Origin: a virus
Strand: one strand, 5' to 3'
Length of the DNA stretch: 64,000 nucleotides
Virus record (IMG/VR): IMGVR_UViG_3300041809_000801
Location: 24,935-88,934 of that record
Both the position numbers and the translations under genes were made by a program. A model generated the notes under the pieces. That model ran no database searches. It was given only the letters and a program-made list of their open reading frames with translations, and had not been told where the DNA came from. Shown piece after piece: positions 58,793 to 64,000 of the stretch. The number at the start of each line of letters is the position of its first letter. Positions within the stretch are counted from its first letter, which is position 1.

Positions 58793-59569
58793 ATGAATGA
58801 AACCAATAATGCGGTAGAATCTACATGTGGAATCTACCGCATCTTCCTTATAGGAACAGACCGCAGTTACGTGGGTCAGGCAAAGAACATAGACCATCGT
58901 TGGTACGACCACAAACGCACTCTTCTAAAGGGCACCCATCATGCTAAGAAGCTGCAAAGAGCGTGGAATAAATATGGAGAAGAGAATTTCAAGTTCGAAG
59001 TGTTAGAAGTCTGTCCTTGCGATGCTTATCTTCTACTCAACCGAGAGCAGCATTGGATGGATACCTTACAGGCGTACAAACGAGGGTTCAATTGCTCTAA
59101 GAGTGCTGGGCTGTCCACTTTGGGGGTAACACACTCATCAGAGACAAAAGCAAAAATTTCAGCTAAAGCTAAAGGGCGAATAACCTCAGATGAGACTAAA
59201 GAGAAGCTTCGTCAGAGGATGAAGAATAGGGTGTTTTCAAAGGAGCATCTTCAGCATTTATCAGAAGCGGGTAAGAAACGAATGAGCGGCTCCCCCGATA
59301 AATTGAAATTGGCTCAATGGTCTAAAGAACATCCAAGGTATGGTGATTCCCACCCTTTATTTGGCAAACATCACTCAGCTAGTTCAAAATTGAAAATGTC
59401 AGAGTCCACCAAAAAGTACCATAAAGACCACCCAGCCACTCCTGAACTCAAAGCCCTTCGTTCCAAGAATGCCAAGGGTTTGTTCAACCCCATGTTCGGA
59501 AGAACCCATTCTGAAGAAACCAAAGAAAAAATACGTCAAGCACGACTAAAACGAGTATCTAGGATGTAG
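58793..59569 (+). CDS. GIY-YIG homing endonuclease with NUMOD3 repeats
   Basis: CGIYRI...YVGQA..R..H; HSSETKAKIS, HPLFGKHHS, NPMFGRTHSEETKEKI. Confidence 0.92.
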   Translation: MNETNNAVESTCGIYRIFLIGTDRSYVGQAKNIDHRWYDHKRTLLKGTHHAKKLQRAWNKYGEENFKFEVLEVCPCDAYLLLNREQHWMDTLQAYKRGFNCSKSAGLSTLGVTHSSETKAKISAKAKGRITSDETKEKLRQRMKNRVFSKEHLQHLSEAGKKRMSGSPDKLKLAQWSKEHPRYGDSHPLFGKHHSASSKLKMSESTKKYHKDHPATPELKALRSKNAKGLFNPMFGRTHSEETKEKIRQARLKRVSRM

Positions 59570-59902: not shown

Positions 59903-60154
59903 ATGAGTGACTCCGACTTTGAAATTGTCAATCCAGAAGAACTGCGCGAAGAAGTTCTACTGCAACTTCTCGCTGTGTTTGTTCGGAGATTTGGTGGAGA
60001 GGTTACGATTTCTGCACGCGAATTTGGAATGGTCGAGGGGTTGGAGTTGTTCGCTCGACACACCACGACTGAGAGTCTTATGCTTCGGTTAGAAGATGAG
60101 GCTGAGATTTATTTAGAAGTCGATGATGACGAGGCTGGTCCTGAAGAGAGCTAA
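59903..60154 (+). CDS. Small acidic hypothetical protein
   Basis: 83 aa; RBS embedded in a 16-bp hairpin. Confidence 0.7.
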   Translation: MSDSDFEIVNPEELREEVLLQLLAVFVRRFGGEVTISAREFGMVEGLELFARHTTTESLMLRLEDEAEIYLEVDDDEAGPEES

Positions 60155-60513
60155 AGCATTCGCATCCTGTCGTACTCTGGAAGCAACGGAAGAATTTCCT
60201 TCGCCATCTCGTAGAACATTGCGTAGTAACGGACTGGCGTTCCCCATGAGCCAAACTCATAGTGCCACGCGAAAGCAATGAGGTTTCCCAACTCCTGCTC
60301 CGTCATCCGGTTCATCCCCTCCCGCACAATTCCCCCGGCGATAAGCTTGCACTCACCGTCGTATTCATCAGAAGGGCAACCCATTTTCAAAAGCTGTTCG
60401 GGGTCGTATTTGTCTACGACCGGCTTGACCACGGCAATGATTTCTGCCTCAGTCCTTTGCATCTTTTCTGTCCAGTCAGCAAACCGCTGTTCGCGGGTCT
60501 TTTCGGTGCTCAT
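60151..60513 (-). CDS. DUF1871/YugE-like protein
   Basis: YDPEQLLKMGCPSDEYDGE motif; ATG 60513 lies 6 nt after TATCAT. Confidence 0.65.
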   Translation of the reverse strand: MSTEKTREQRFADWTEKMQRTEAEIIAVVKPVVDKYDPEQLLKMGCPSDEYDGECKLIAGGIVREGMNRMTEQELGNLIAFAWHYEFGSWGTPVRYYAMFYEMAKEILPLLPEYDRMRML

Positions 60514-60545
60514 ATTCACATGATACCTCAATCTAGTCATCGCCG

Positions 60546-60947
60546 TCATATTGATGCTTTTTTCAGATATTTTATGGCAGATTTTAGAATTGTGATGTCC
60601 TCCTGAGCCAGCCCAATAAACACATTGCATTTCATACAGAGCAGTCCTCGAACTCGATTTGTTGTATGACAATGGTCAAGTGCGGGGCCTCGTTTTCCTT
60701 TGACACTACCGGGACGAGCAACTGGTTTTTTACAGATGGCACAGCGCCCTTGTTGGTGTTCATAGAAGTAGTCCACCGTCCCCTTCTTTTGGTTGATGGC
60801 TCGTCTTCTCTTTTTGTCTCCAAAGCGGAGGGTGAGGTATGTTTCCACCTTTTTCTCTTCTTGTTTTGTGACTGGAATCCGCTTCTTTTTTGCTGCCCAC
60901 CGCAGTCGCATTTCTTCTTGCTTCTTGTCCAGATTTTCTCGATTCAT
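60546..60947 (-). CDS. Endonuclease VII-family (HNH-type) nuclease
   Basis: QQGRCAIC...LDHCHTTNRVRGLLCMKCNVFIG. Confidence 0.9.
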   Translation of the reverse strand: MNRENLDKKQEEMRLRWAAKKKRIPVTKQEEKKVETYLTLRFGDKKRRRAINQKKGTVDYFYEHQQGRCAICKKPVARPGSVKGKRGPALDHCHTTNRVRGLLCMKCNVFIGLAQEDITILKSAIKYLKKASI

Positions 60948-61095
60948 AGGGATTCCTCTACTATGATGTCAATAGTCAAATCCTTAATTATTTTTTTGCT
61001 GAAAATAAAGGGTTTAGTAGGTACAGTTCTCAAAATTTCCTCTTAAAACGTATGGAATCAGCAGTTTGAAGACCACACCCGTGTATAATAGAGAC

Positions 61096-61662
61096 ATGCG
61101 AATCGAACTGAAGAACAAGACGCATTATCGTGATGACCACATTCGAGCGTTCCTCGTCAAGGGGATTCAGACAGAACGTCCTGACCTGTGCAAACACGGG
61201 GCTCGGCCTATGCGTGTCATCGTTTCATACCGCCGCAACACGAGCGGGAGTTCAGGCTGTGCCTATCTTCATTCTCATTGGATGACAGTGCGGCTACCGA
61301 AGGACACCACCAAGATTGATAAGGTGGACTTCGCTCTCGTCATTGCTCATGAACTTGGTCACACACGAGGTCTTGACCATCGACGCATGAACTCGTGTGC
61401 CACTTACGGGAGAGTCGGTCGCTGGCGTGAAATCTATGCTTGGGCCGATGGACTCCCGTTGGAAGTCAAACCGAAAACCAGCAAGCGCAAACAGCCTGAT
61501 GCGAAACTGGAGCACTGCAAGCGGATGTTCAAAGCCGCATTGACGCGAGAGAAGAGAGCGACTACACTTCGCAAGAAGTGGGAAGCCAAGGTGAAGTATT
61601 ACACCAAGAGGGCGGCAACTCCGCCTTCGAAAGGGGACACTCATGTTGCAAGTGCGATTTGA
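61096..61662 (+). CDS. Zincin-like metallopeptidase (HExxH)
   Basis: VIAHELGHTRGLDH; ATG 61096 lies 6 nt after TATAAT. Confidence 0.7.
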   Translation: MRIELKNKTHYRDDHIRAFLVKGIQTERPDLCKHGARPMRVIVSYRRNTSGSSGCAYLHSHWMTVRLPKDTTKIDKVDFALVIAHELGHTRGLDHRRMNSCATYGRVGRWREIYAWADGLPLEVKPKTSKRKQPDAKLEHCKRMFKAALTREKRATTLRKKWEAKVKYYTKRAATPPSKGDTHVASAI

Positions 61663-61927
61663 TGACGCTACGAAGACGCGGTTGAAGACAGTGGCGAAGA
61701 GCAAACTGGTGTTGAAATGCCCGACGCACGCTCGTTACAACCCCGGAGAGGGACGCGGAGCCATCAAAGGCTGCTGTCCCGGCTGTGAGGCTGCACTGGA
61801 AGCCTACGAGGCTGTGTGTAATCTTCGTCAGGCTCTCGCTCGGTATTCCGTGCAGACCGAGAGATTTGAAACAGCGAAGCCTCGACAAAAGAAACCCAAA
61901 GCAACTTGCGTTGGAGCCGGAGCCTGA
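61643..61927 (+). CDS. Small Cys/His-rich hypothetical protein
   Basis: CPTHARYNP...CCPGC; AGGGG RBS. Confidence 0.65.
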   Translation: MLQVRFDDATKTRLKTVAKSKLVLKCPTHARYNPGEGRGAIKGCCPGCEAALEAYEAVCNLRQALARYSVQTERFETAKPRQKKPKATCVGAGA

Positions 61928-61943
61928 GGTATAGTTGACGAGT

Positions 61944-62035
61944 TGAGGTTCGGTGGTGTGACGTGGGTTCGGATTAGCCTCCTCTCCACAGAAGTGCTCA
62001 TACCACGCCGTGTAGCGCGGCCACTGCCAGCCTCA
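61944..62035 (+). ncRNA. Unidentified structured RNA A
   Basis: TGAGGTT/AGCCTCA and CGGTGGT/GCCACTG terminal helices, CGTGG/CCACG inner helix; TATAGT -10 at 61930-61935. Confidence 0.45.
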
Positions 62036-62113
62036 CAGAGTTTTCCACAGATTTTTTGAAATGAGTGGACAAAAAGACCAGAATCCGTGTATTATGGATT
62101 TACGTTCTTGAAT

Positions 62114-62240
62114 AGGAAAGCAACTGGCGGGTCACTCGGGGGGTAGTAGGGGAGCCACATCGCTTGCGATTGGAACAACTCCAGCCGAAGCCCAACATGA
62201 AGGCGGGTACTCCGTTTCCGTAGTTGCTTTCCTCCTTTTT
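62114..62240 (+). ncRNA. Unidentified structured RNA B
   Basis: Perfect 12-bp terminal helix AGGAAAGCAACT (62114-62125)/AGTTGCTTTCCT (62222-62233), then T-run; TGGACA-18-TATTAT upstream. Confidence 0.55.
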
Positions 62241-62282
62241 CTAAGCTGTTGCGAAAATAATCGCCAGTGAATGAAAAAGTCC

Positions 62283-62311
62283 TTGCAATTTTCCAACTTT
62301 TGGAGTATTAA
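62283..62311 (+). promoter_or_regulatory. Sigma70-like promoter of the tRNA operon
   Basis: TTGCAA-17 nt-TATTAA. Confidence 0.55.
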
Positions 62312-62331
62312 GTAAGAGAGTGAACAAAACC

Positions 62332-62454
62332 ATGACTATCCAGACCAACATCTCGACCTCCACCGTAGCGGCAGTAGCCGTCGTGGGCGTCGTCGCAGCC
62401 GCTGAAGCCGGTTGCGCGGGAGAGGATACCATGCCTCTGGAGGTCCAAGGATAA
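62332..62454 (+). CDS. Val/Ala/Gly-rich attenuator leader peptide (40 aa; not in ORF track)
   Basis: MTIQTNISTSTVAAVAVVGVVAAAEAGCAGEDTMPLEVQG*; last codons overlap the antiterminator arm. Confidence 0.75.
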   Translation: MTIQTNISTSTVAAVAVVGVVAAAEAGCAGEDTMPLEVQG

Positions 62455-62484
62455 GCGAAAGCGAAATCCGAACTTTCCAGAGGC
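62421..62484 (+). promoter_or_regulatory. Attenuator alternative helices (1:2 and 2:3 antiterminator)
   Basis: AGAGG(62421-25)/CCTCT(62434-38); GCCTCTGGA(62433-41)/TCCAGAGGC(62476-84), which overlaps the terminator 5' arm. Confidence 0.7.
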
Positions 62485-62513
62485 CAGCCGAAAAAGGCTG
62501 GCTTTTGATTTTT
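62479..62513 (+). terminator. Intrinsic terminator (attenuator 3:4) before first tRNA
   Basis: GCCAGCC-GAAAAA-GGCTGGC followed by TTTTGATTTTT. Confidence 0.85.
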
Positions 62514-62532
62514 GTAGCAAACAATTTGTTGT

Positions 62533-62610
62533 GCTCCGGTGGTGTGAGTGGCCTATACCGCCTCCCCTACAAGGAGGATTTCACAGGTTCGAATCCTGTC
62601 TGGAGCACCA
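62533..62610 (+). tRNA. tRNA-Val(TAC), atypical C33
   Basis: Acceptor GCTCCGG/CTGGAGC-A-CCA; anticodon arm CCTCC-CCTACAA-GGAGG; T arm ACAGG-TTCGAAT-CCTGT. Confidence 0.85.
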
Positions 62611-62612
62611 AT

Positions 62613-62688
62613 GCGGGAGTAGCTCAGTTGGTAGAGCGCAACCTTGCCAAGGTTGAGGTCGCGGGTTCGAATCCCACATCCCGCTCCA
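62613..62688 (+). tRNA. tRNA-Gly(GCC)
   Basis: GCGGGAGTAGCTCAGTTGGTAGAGC..CTTGCCAAG..GGTTCGAATCC..TCCCGCTCCA; two stem mismatches. Confidence 0.93.
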
Positions 62689-62703
62689 AGTTTCGGTATT
62701 AAG

Positions 62704-63312
62704 TTAGTGGGCTCGTCGTTCAGCGGGAGGACTACACGCTTGCACCGTGCCAACGAGAGTTCGAATCTCTCCGGGTCCACCAGATTTTAGATTTGTGTAC
62801 ATGCCATCATGGGCTGTGTAGTGTTCCTCTTCATGACAGGTTGGACACAGAATTTCAAGGTTTTCGGGTTTACCATTTTTTCGGTTACGGTCGATATGGT
62901 GTACTCGTAAAACAGGGATGTGGCGGTTGTAGCCACATCTGTTGCATCGGGCAGGATGGTGTCTAAATGCGATTTTTCTGTATTTAAGTTCTGACGTTCC
63001 ATAATGTTCAGGCTGAATCGCAGAGCAGTTACCGTCATCAATGCTTTGGGCTTTATTTTTACAGACGCGAGAGCAGAAACGCAGACCGCTCTTGGATTTT
63101 TTCAGATTGCTTTTGAACTTCTTGAAGGTAGTCTTGCAATAAACACAGGTTACTTCCACTGATTCACGACCCGGTTGGGCACAGGTCAGGGAACAAAATT
63201 TAAGCTTGTTGTGGGTGGAGCCATAGTAAGGTTCCTTGCAGTTTTCACAGTAACGCAAGTAAAGTCGGCGTTTCTTGCCATCTTTACATTTGGAGATAAT
63301 CTCCTTCTCCAT
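62704..63312 (-). CDS. HNH homing endonuclease inserted antisense in the tRNA array
   Basis: FCSLTC, FCSRVC, CNRCG..VHHIDRNRKN....NLEILCPTCHEEEH; ATG 63312 with GAGG. Confidence 0.88.
   Translation of the reverse strand: MEKEIISKCKDGKKRRLYLRYCENCKEPYYGSTHNKLKFCSLTCAQPGRESVEVTCVYCKTTFKKFKSNLKKSKSGLRFCSRVCKNKAQSIDDGNCSAIQPEHYGTSELKYRKIAFRHHPARCNRCGYNRHIPVLRVHHIDRNRKNGKPENLEILCPTCHEEEHYTAHDGMYTNLKSGGPGEIRTLVGTVQACSPPAERRAH
62709..62782 (+). tRNA. tRNA-Ala(TGC)
   Basis: Acceptor GGGCTCG/CGGGTCC-A-CCA with G3:U70; anticodon loop CTTGCAC. Confidence 0.9.
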
Positions 63313-63377
63313 GGTGTGTGCCTCGCTTATGTAAGATAGGTACTCACTAAGGGGTTTGATATTTGACAATTTTAGTT

Positions 63378-63706
63378 TGCACTGGAACTGGACAATCGCG
63401 ACGTGGCGCAATACCACTTCGAGGAAGTTCGGGACTCCATAGGACAGCATGTAGGGTAACGCCCTAGCAGTTGGCGGCTTAACCGCCGTCGATTGACGAT
63501 TAGAGCAACAGAGACGAGCCGATTTAATTCGGGTGAAACGGGCAATCTCCATGTGGAGCAATTCCAAATAGGCCGTGAGACTTGTGTCCGAGTCGTTATC
63601 AAGCGGCGGGTTGGGAGCTAGAGCCAGACGGTAACGGCTGGCCGAGACGAATGATTGTGCATGAGGGAAACCTCAAGACAGAATCCCGGCTATAGGTTCC
63701 AGTGCA
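63378..63706 (+). ncRNA. rnpB: RNase P RNA (bacterial type A-like, lacking P13/P14)
   Basis: P1 TGCACTGGAAC/GTTCCAGTGCA; P4 GAGGAAGTTCGGGA...ACAGAATCCCGGCTATA; GCAACAGAGA, GGGTGAAACGG, GGAGCAA..AAATAGG, GCTAGAG, P18 GCCAG..CTGGC, AGACGAATGATTGT. Confidence 0.93.
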
Positions 63707-63781
63707 TTAAGCGGGGTGACACCTTCCATGGCGAAAGCCAAAAGTGGTGTGGCACAACGGAGAGGACGTTGAGATTTTTGA

Positions 63782-63855
63782 GCGAGGTTGGTATATGGGT
63801 TGTGCCCAGTCCTTCCAAGTCTGAGAAAGGGGTTCGAGTCCCCTACCTCGCTCCA
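63782..63855 (+). tRNA. tRNA-Gly(TCC)
   Basis: GCGAGGT/ACCTCGC-T-CCA; anticodon loop CTTCCAA; AGGGG-TTCGAGT-CCCCT. Confidence 0.9.
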
Positions 63856-63979
63856 AGCTTAGGTGCCGTGTTCACCACCGTCTAGTAGCTTCGCTGTGGT
63901 GGCGAAGTGAAAAACGGGGGCGGAAGCGGCTCCGGTGGAGGGTGGGCTTAACCAGCCCACCAACCCGAACGGTGTTATA

Positions 63980-64000
63980 GGCGCGGTACCCAAGTGGTAA
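63980..64000 (+). tRNA. 5' fragment of a further tRNA (Cys-like D arm), truncated by window edge
   Basis: GGCGCGG-TA-CCCAAGTGGTAA; anticodon not visible, so identity is a guess. Confidence 0.55.

Follow-up and report, generated by a model that had tools for sequence, protein, structure and literature searches.

The window analyzed here is a stretch of 64,000 nucleotides (nt), the last 64 kb of IMGVR_UViG_3300041809_000801, an 88,934-bp contig of an uncultured wetland phage (50% G+C). The contig carries 15 tRNA genes, together with a permuted transfer-messenger RNA (tmRNA) and the bacterial class A RNA of ribonuclease P (RNase P). Toward the end of the window, a tRNA array opens with genes for tRNA-Val, tRNA-Gly, and tRNA-Ala and continues, past a homing-endonuclease gene on the opposite strand and the RNase P RNA, with a second tRNA-Gly and the beginning of a tRNA-Cys (Table 1). 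Ahead of the array lie a promoter, a purine-rich Shine-Dalgarno-like element, a short open reading frame (ORF) with a run rich in Val, Ala, and Gly codons, and an intrinsic terminator whose 5' arm can pair alternatively with the last codons of the ORF. We propose that these parts probably form a ribosome-mediated leader-peptide transcription attenuator gating the phage tRNA operon, and that the array is probably transcribed only when ribosomes decode its codons slowly.

Table 1. Features of the leader and its tRNA array, with related elements elsewhere in the phage genome and in other phages (window coordinates unless a genome or locus is named)
Feature	Position or locus	Strand	Details
Leader promoter	62283-62311	+	-35 TTGCAA 62283-62288, 17-nt spacer, -10 TATTAA 62306-62311
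Purine-rich Shine-Dalgarno-like element AAGAGAG	62314-62320	+	11 nt before ATG
Leader ORF, 40 codons plus TAA	62332-62454	+	ATG 62332; TAA 62452-62454
Regulatory run, 21 codons of Val/Ala/Gly/Glu/Cys/Asp alone	62365-62427	+
Segment 1, AGAGG	62421-62425	+	pairs with CCTCT 62434-62438
Segment 2, antiterminator 5' strand, in last ORF codons	62433-62443	+	9-19 nt before stop codon
Segment 3, antiterminator 3' strand	62474-62484	+	overlaps terminator 5' arm
Intrinsic terminator	62478-62515	+	12-pair hairpin 62478-62507, T-run to about 62515
tRNA-Val(UAC)	62533-62610	+	first array gene, 25 nt past terminator stem
tRNA-Gly(GCC)	62613-62688	+
tRNA-Ala(UGC)	62709-62782	+
HNH homing-endonuclease gene inside array	62786-63312	-	PHROG HNH endonuclease families, best E 3e-17
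RNase P RNA, bacterial class A, embedded in array	63380-63708	+	Rfam RF00010, 165 bits
tRNA-Gly(UCC)	63782-63855	+
tRNA-Cys(GCA), 5' 21 nt	63980-64000	+	rest beyond contig end; from comparison with L011
Type B leader	L001, L013		short leader with M-T-G-K-R-V-I-W-G-I-V; array Trp, Met, Ile, Lys, Lys, Arg, Arg, Val, Thr, Ile, Gly
Type C leader	G001, G003, G002		Leu/Ser/Tyr-rich leader; Tyr/Leu arrays, in G002 Leu/Cys/Leu/Leu/Ser/Tyr
Type D leader	G002		rich in T, R, F, H, P, A, Q, G, N; array Gln, Gln, Gly, Thr, His, Ala, Phe, Pro, Pro, Arg, His
Type E leader	this phage, genome c16111-16191, outside window		core T-N-Q-T-R-I-T-T-T-T-Q-T; array Ile x2, Thr x5, Gln x2
Tunturi_5 leaders	L054 857-955; L053 5308-5421; L055 774-923
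RNA-library contigs bridging the terminator	62130-62580; 62118-62627; 62377-62639; 62337-62600
tRNA(CUA)	genome 17917-17994; L047 7324-7397	-
Permuted tmRNA	genome 23021-23340 (-); L047 11375-11775; L049 4339-4764

A preliminary description of the window, made from its letters alone, had reported the promoter, the 40-codon ORF, and, within 19 of its codons, 6 Val, 8 Ala, and 3 Gly with all four Ala codons in use. The promoter is present as described and its position is conserved in relatives; public gene calls independently include the exact leader peptide, as a hypothetical protein; and the codon counts are exact, the stretch 62365-62421 containing in addition 1 Glu and 1 Cys. The run of 21 residues confined to Val, Ala, Gly, Glu, Cys, and Asp is the longest of its kind in the six frames of the 88.9-kb contig, where the runner-up reaches 11. 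A homolog 92% identical to the leader peptide is found on a 413-kb contig. The -10 hexamer ends 20 nt before the leader ATG and, because it ends in A and not T, the promoter is absent from the list returned by a simple scan for the sigma-70 consensus.

The amino acids of the run correspond to those of the array. The genes reported downstream (tRNA-Val, -Gly, and -Ala, a second Gly, and a Cys-like start) were all located, the last of them through L011, a locus that is 98% identical to the window over 4.5 kb and extends past its end; the final 21 nt of the window match the start of the L011 tRNA-Cys. The array of L011 has the order Val, Gly, Ala, HNH gene and RNase P RNA, Gly, Cys, Ala, Asp, Asp, Val, Ala, Ala, Glu, Cys, Glu, Val, Glu, Gly, and its 17 tRNAs serve exactly the six amino acids of the leader run (Val, Ala, Gly, Glu, Cys, and Asp). 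The initial proposal that Val, Ala, and Gly are sensed is too narrow, since Glu, Cys, and Asp would belong to the set as well: given that the full array, the larger part of which is located past the window end, covers all six, a match phrased as Val/Ala/Gly understates the correspondence.

All segments of the structure that had been proposed, namely a 1:2 helix, a 2:3 helix, and a 3:4 terminator, were recovered at their places. The terminator begins 23 nt past the stop codon, has a fold energy of -22.7 kcal/mol, and is separated by 25 nt, from stem end, from tRNA-Val. No promoter-like hexamers were seen in these 25 nt, so transcription of the array probably must pass the terminator. The core of the competing 2:3 helix pairs GCCTCTGGA (62433-62441) with TCCAGAGGC (62476-62484), forming 9 bp at -16.5 kcal/mol. 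The best pairing between the ORF and the terminator arm amounts to -21.5 kcal/mol, which was reached by 0 of 300 dinucleotide shuffles, and the whole leader folds better than shuffled sequences (z = -3.4). The 1:2 helix, AGAGG/CCTCT, has 5 bp and an energy of -5.3 kcal/mol. When a ribosome footprint was modeled at the stop codon (62437-62466), 2:3 was abolished and the terminator stood; it also remained with 62421-62455 blocked, a check suggested in the preliminary description. With the footprint placed inside the run, nascent RNA up to 62487 formed an 11-bp 2:3 helix (62433-62443/62474-62484). The folds with masked footprints switch between 2:3 and the terminator in the way demanded by the trp/ilv/pheST-type geometry that had been ascribed to this leader.

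A switch of this kind might conceivably be worked by the leader RNA itself, sensing tRNA directly in the style of a T-box or another tRNA-binding riboswitch and without translation, as T-box leaders also alternate between terminator and antiterminator in response to tRNA. We regard this as highly improbable. Comparison of 60000-64000 with T-box and other cis-regulatory Rfam families gave no match up to E = 1, and seven relatives had none at the gathering score; the leader of ~200 nt contains a conserved Shine-Dalgarno-like element, an ATG, and an open frame; and a single specifier codon cannot explain a match to several amino acids.

Relatives of the locus were collected by alignment-based scans anchored on the neighboring SprT-like metalloprotease gene; a single-protein scan and a search of viral contigs for an exact DNA pattern returned no relatives. 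Six further distinct versions were obtained (L004, L006, L008, L002, L005, and L022), which together with the window locus make up family A; their SprT-like genes are 66-71% identical at the nucleotide level. In all six, the promoter, the Shine-Dalgarno-like element, the ORF with its run, the alternative pairing, and the terminator precede tRNA-Val(UAC). The spacing between promoter and ATG is shared by all seven variants of family A, with TTGCAx or TTGACA, a spacer of 16-18 nt, and a -10 hexamer that is mostly TATTAT (variants: TATTAT, TATTAA, TACTAT, and TATCTT). The Shine-Dalgarno sequences of the relatives read GAGG or AAGGA, 6-12 nt before the ATG, and their ORFs have 38-47 codons, in which a Val/Ala/Gly-rich run is followed by Glu, Asp, Cys, and Gly. 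A hairpin with a T-run occupies the equivalent place in 6 of 6 relatives, that of L022 having been read by eye after the fold script missed it. The RNase P RNA is likewise found at the equivalent place in six of seven relatives; in L004, only 14 nt separate it from the preceding tRNA-Ala and 8 nt from the next tRNA, which makes the ribozyme part of the tRNA-array unit in that locus.

The preliminary description had made its proposal depend on homologous leaders conserving the frame and the 2:3 pairing, and the relatives keep both. The 2:3 strands change in a correlated manner: CTCTGG/CCAGAG in the window and in L004, CTCGG/CCGAG in L006 and L008, and CTTGG/CCGAG, with a G-U pair, in L002. The GAGG/CCTC of the 1:2 helix is also kept, without covariation. 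Within segment 2, the nucleotides GCCTC persist in a shifted frame, in which the residues are M-P-L in one case versus M-A-S in the other. The retention of these nucleotides despite the change in frame and residues suggests a constraint at the RNA level over segment 2. In several relatives segment 2 is displaced by one base, so the antiterminator is not scorable by alignment columns, and its conservation was scored by per-sequence duplex tests.

We found four further leader types (B to E), homologous neither to family A nor to each other, each followed by a terminator and then by its own array (Table 1). One of them, type E, belongs to the same phage as the window and is the best Thr/Ile/Gln window of the whole contig. 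The hairpins of B_L001 and D_L049, for which the script calls were wrong, were read by eye, as for L022. Testing leader codon content against the tRNA set had been suggested at the outset, and the two do co-vary over the five non-homologous types as well as over the arrays of the cultured phage described below. Compared with the phage proteome, 15 of 15 leaders are enriched in the amino acids of their own array (binomial p 4e-2 to 2e-5). In a 5 x 5 table crossing leaders with arrays, the diagonal is always the top entry, and of 120 permutations the true assignment alone scores best. Over 14 leaders, an array amino acid is much more often found at >=2 leader codons, with an odds ratio of 8.7 calculated from table cells that are not independent. 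The correspondence extends to individual amino acids. Every leader whose array has a tRNA-Cys (5 of 5) contains a Cys codon: where this tRNA is part of the Val/Gly/Ala array (this phage, G001, and G003), it is the leader of that array that bears the Cys codon, and where it is part of the Leu/Ser/Tyr array (G002 and Tunturi_5), the codon is in that leader instead. Similarly, among type B-like leaders there are 8 Asp/Glu codons where the array has tRNA-Asp/Glu (Tunturi_5) and 0 in the two leaders whose arrays do not.

The arrangement of the parts is also shared. The matched codons cluster in one block immediately ahead of the 3' tail of the ORF that bears segment 2. In leaders whose terminator was correctly called by the script, the 3' end of segment 2 falls in an interval that runs from 18 nt ahead of the first base of the stop codon to 6 nt past it, close enough to lie within the footprint of a ribosome at the stop. 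The duplex between ORF and terminator arm beats dinucleotide shuffles in 11 of 14 distinct leaders (fraction 0.000-0.067). Watson-Crick leader codons cover 11/13, 12/12, 9/9, 6/6, and 5/5 of the array anticodons. In one isolated instance, all six Leu codons occur in the Leu/Tyr leader of L050; that of L048 has no TTA, and its array no tRNA-Leu(UAA).

These comparisons also bear on the idea that the ORF simply encodes a functional small hydrophobic peptide, with a terminator of its own, and stands upstream of the tRNAs by chance. The Val/Ala/Gly run is indeed hydrophobic, and the ORF is called as a hypothetical protein in public data. However, run composition is conserved among relatives while residue order is not, segment 2 nucleotides are kept where frame and residues change, and non-homologous leaders that are not hydrophobic (rich in Thr/Ile/Gln, Leu/Ser/Tyr, or Lys/Arg/Trp) hold the same position and match their arrays. 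We therefore give this explanation very little credence.

The type E locus spans genome 16068-16191 (minus strand), equivalent to about 5569-5692 of L056, and consists of a 26-codon ORF followed by a terminator. Between this terminator and the Ile/Thr/Gln tRNAs lie a DUF6915 gene and a 116-aa ORF, so that the type E attenuator may also gate protein genes. The ten N-terminal codons of the window leader (62335-62364) are rich in Thr, Ile, Gln, Asn, and Ser, as they are in all family-A variants, and resemble the content of the Ile/Thr/Gln leader and array of the same genome. Common descent of the two leaders and a second input are both possibilities here.

The same design is present in a cultured phage. 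Tunturiibacter phage Tunturi_5 (PP885688.1), an Acidobacteriota phage, has a genome of 308.7 kb and infects Tunturiibacter psychrotolerans X4BP1. Its three tRNA arrays all stand behind a matched, unannotated leader ORF and a terminator, with binomial p values of 1e-4, 2e-3, and 1e-6, and a 3 x 3 cross-table is highest on the diagonal. The tRNA-Asp and tRNA-Glu of Tunturi_5 are located in its Trp/Met/Lys/Arg array. The paper describing the phage lists 43 tRNA genes and does not mention their control (PMC11924767). The sequence record annotates a tRNA nucleotidyltransferase and an RtcB-type tRNA splicing ligase beside the arrays. With the design on all three arrays of a cultured phage whose host is available, the proposal can be tested at the bench.

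From the arrangement of these parts we infer translation of the leader ORF, ribosome stalling, conditional read-through, and a physiological trigger. Transcription would start at the leader promoter, and possibly also at a site at 62066-62095, and a ribosome would translate the leader as RNA polymerase nears the terminator hairpin. If all 21 codons of the run are decoded fast, the ribosome would reach the TAA and cover segment 2, the terminator would form, and the array would stay off. If charged cognate tRNA is scarce for any one of them, decoding would be slow there and the ribosome would stall upstream of segment 2, which could then pair with segment 3 and take up most of the terminator 5' arm. 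The polymerase would consequently read into tRNA-Val, -Gly, and -Ala and the RNase P RNA, and then into the Gly, Cys, Ala, Asp, Val, and Glu tRNAs. The new tRNAs would restore decoding, in a negative feedback on the tRNA pool. The stimulus may be starvation, a host anticodon nuclease, or the demand of late infection.

The same parts could be read as a nutrient sensor, with amino-acid starvation as the signal and charged tRNA as its proxy, as in ilv and thr. The phage would then match its tRNA output to how well its host is nourished, and not to a loss or shortage of the tRNAs. Classical attenuators respond to aminoacylation rather than to tRNA abundance, and sequence cannot tell an uncharged tRNA from an absent one. 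Leaders and arrays divide the amino acids among them one to one, which fits sensing of what each array supplies, and under starvation the feedback would not close, because extra tRNA does not relieve a lack of amino acids. We consider a starvation signal unlikely, although less so than the other alternatives discussed here.

Several observations weigh against attenuation by a translating ribosome as we have outlined it. The minimum-energy nascent fold without a ribosome also contains 2:3, so that the default-off state of trp in the absence of translation is not reproduced, and the 1:2 hairpin is weak (5 bp). When 2:3 is formed, a terminator remnant of 5 bp persists with the T-run, and read-through may consequently be partial. 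A ribosome stalled at the codons for Gly30, Glu31, and Asp32, which are near segment 2, might itself mask that segment. In the terminator columns of alignment A2 (seven sequences, with indels), covariation was not significant compared with shuffles: 81.5% of cells are paired and there is one doubly changed pair. The leader core shows 96-100% identity in L004 and L006, and the tRNAs are highly conserved too, with SprT genes 68-71% identical; a recent transfer of the entire array, mediated by homing endonucleases, could account for this leader identity in place of selection. Host tRNAs decode the codons of the run as well, which obscures the trigger. Lastly, resampling of synonymous codons gives nearly the same coverage of array anticodons (p = 0.03-0.7), and no clear tuning to individual isoacceptors emerges beyond what the amino acids themselves entail.

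The RNA-library data count on both sides. Exact contigs from four wetland metatranscriptome runs bridge the leader, the terminator, and tRNA-Val/Gly (Table 1) and so place leader and tRNAs on joined sequence in RNA libraries, which we count in favor of the attenuator, although as assembled contigs they carry no information on ends, strand, or level and could include DNA. Bridging in four runs, together with the ribosome-free 2:3 fold and the weak 1:2 helix, would also be compatible with a constitutive 5' leader with fixed read-through, which stabilizes the tRNA precursor, assists in its processing, or shields it from Rho or RNases, the codon match being a relic or serving another purpose. Yet a 12-pair hairpin followed by a T-run is a canonical intrinsic terminator, alternative pairing of the terminator arm near the stop codon recurs in five unrelated leader types, and a constitutive leader leaves unexplained why each ORF is spelled in the amino acids of its own array. 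On balance we judge a constitutive role to be quite improbable, and leader-peptide attenuation to be the better account.

The four runs leave gaps in cover at 61900-62112 and 62681-62964, which carry no information on transcript starts or on a promoter for the distal array. The RNase P RNA region reaches metatranscriptome contig depths of hundreds to thousands. Three contigs from three RNA libraries start at 62118-62130 and continue through the leader, a weak hint that the promoter-like site at 62066-62095 (TGGACA-18-TATTAT, 10/12 matches) also feeds it. This site opens a unit (62066-62240) in which it is followed by ~130 nt closed by a long helix and a T-run. The unit has no Rfam match; a near-identical copy is present upstream of the L006 leader, and its RNA may be co-transcribed with the attenuator.

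Leader gating is not universal among tRNA genes. In this genome, neither the tmRNA genes nor tRNA(CUA)/tRNA-Val(GAC) have a leader immediately ahead of them, and in G002 none precedes the Asp/Glu/Glu tRNAs downstream of the tmRNA. The tRNA with anticodon CUA, of the amber-suppressor type (labeled Pyl by ARAGORN), adjoins tRNA-Val(GAC) and has a plain promoter-like upstream region. The tmRNA is of the permuted, two-piece kind (Rfam tmRNA_permuted, 59 bits), and each copy has its own promoter-like site and no leader ORF.

Elsewhere, the window encodes a DnaB-like helicase and a ribonucleotide reductase, along with several homing endonucleases. Besides the HNH gene of Table 1, genes of homing type occur in or around the arrays at 58793-59569 (plus strand), 60546-60947 (minus strand), and L056 4435-4926 (minus strand), the types represented being HNH, GIY-YIG-like, endonuclease VII-like, and PD-(D/E)XK. 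Such genes may carry array segments from phage to phage, and movement of this sort could explain why leader and tRNAs are nearly identical among relatives that are otherwise diverged. The synteny anchor (61066-61662) encodes a metalloprotease-like protein of ~190 aa with an HExxH motif, labeled SprT-like in some sources and with weak Pfam metallopeptidase matches. It is common in peat and wetland metagenomes, and tblastn found no match to it among isolate phages. The link to phages of Acidobacteriota is limited to the common leader design and a tRNA-Gly with 91% identity.

By computational assessment, the element has several components of the attenuator family: a leader ORF with a ribosome-binding site, a cluster of cognate codons, a terminator, and an antiterminator exclusive with it. 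It resembles ilvGMEDA (Ile/Leu/Val), thr (Thr/Ile), trpL, hisL, pheL, and leuL in its promoter-proximal short ORF with a regulatory codon cluster, which may name several amino acids, in the intrinsic terminator ahead of the regulated genes, and in an antiterminator that overlaps the terminator 5' arm and has an upstream strand which a ribosome at the stop would cover. The phage leaders are not homologous in sequence to these enterobacterial ones, and the differences are several. The phage element would regulate tRNAs and RNase P RNA instead of biosynthetic enzymes, its feedback would run through the tRNA pool itself, a single phage leader lists up to six to nine amino acids, and the phage-encoded set divides the amino acids among arrays. 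In E. coli, the pheST attenuator controls the phenylalanyl-tRNA synthetase operon through a leader peptide with codons for the cognate amino acid. This is similar in that a component of the translation apparatus is controlled via cognate codons, but pheST is a protein-coding synthetase operon responding to one amino acid, whereas here the targets are tRNA genes. T-box riboswitches share a terminator/antiterminator switch that reads a specific tRNA state, but they bind tRNA directly, work without translation, rely on one specifier codon, and act on synthetase or amino-acid genes.

The targets of the classical family are amino-acid biosynthesis or synthetase genes, a scope that does not include tRNAs and RNase P RNA; the element would thus work like the family but outside its described range. 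Our results support classical multivalent leader-peptide attenuation of the ilv/thr type, newly applied to tRNA and RNase P RNA genes. The preliminary description knew of no ribosomal attenuator on tRNA genes, and our full-text literature search, which covered phages and bacteria and looked for attenuators or leader peptides ahead of tRNA genes, operons, or arrays, likewise found nothing relevant. The nearest published functional analog comes from Anabaena sp. PCC 7120, whose trn operon, a long array of supernumerary tRNAs, stays silent under normal conditions and is switched on when translation is impaired (PMC8421152). Control there acts on the promoter, by way of direct repeats (PMC8421152) and a repressor, TrcR (PMC10272220). 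Neither paper contains the stem "attenuat" or "terminator"; "leader" is absent from the first (PMC8421152) and "leader peptide" from the second (PMC10272220).

Why and when phages use tRNA genes of their own is a long-standing question, for which compensation of codon usage and replacement of tRNAs destroyed during infection or by defense nucleases have been proposed. If our interpretation is correct, the phage measures tRNA shortage directly and answers it by feedback, and the replacement hypothesis becomes testable. Leader-peptide attenuation would then extend to noncoding RNA genes, and the leaders would be natural multi-input codon sensors whose specificity can be read from sequence. We further suggest, tentatively and with less confidence than in the attenuator itself, that the leaders jointly act as a phage-wide, codon-resolved gauge of the host tRNA pool: each array, with the RNase P ribozyme, would be switched on only when one of its own amino acids is decoded slowly, and the phage would detect and repair, as they occur, losses of specific tRNAs caused by host anticodon nucleases or by the phage's own host shut-off, as an inducible counter-defense. 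If this is true, it would be a form of counter-defense not described before.

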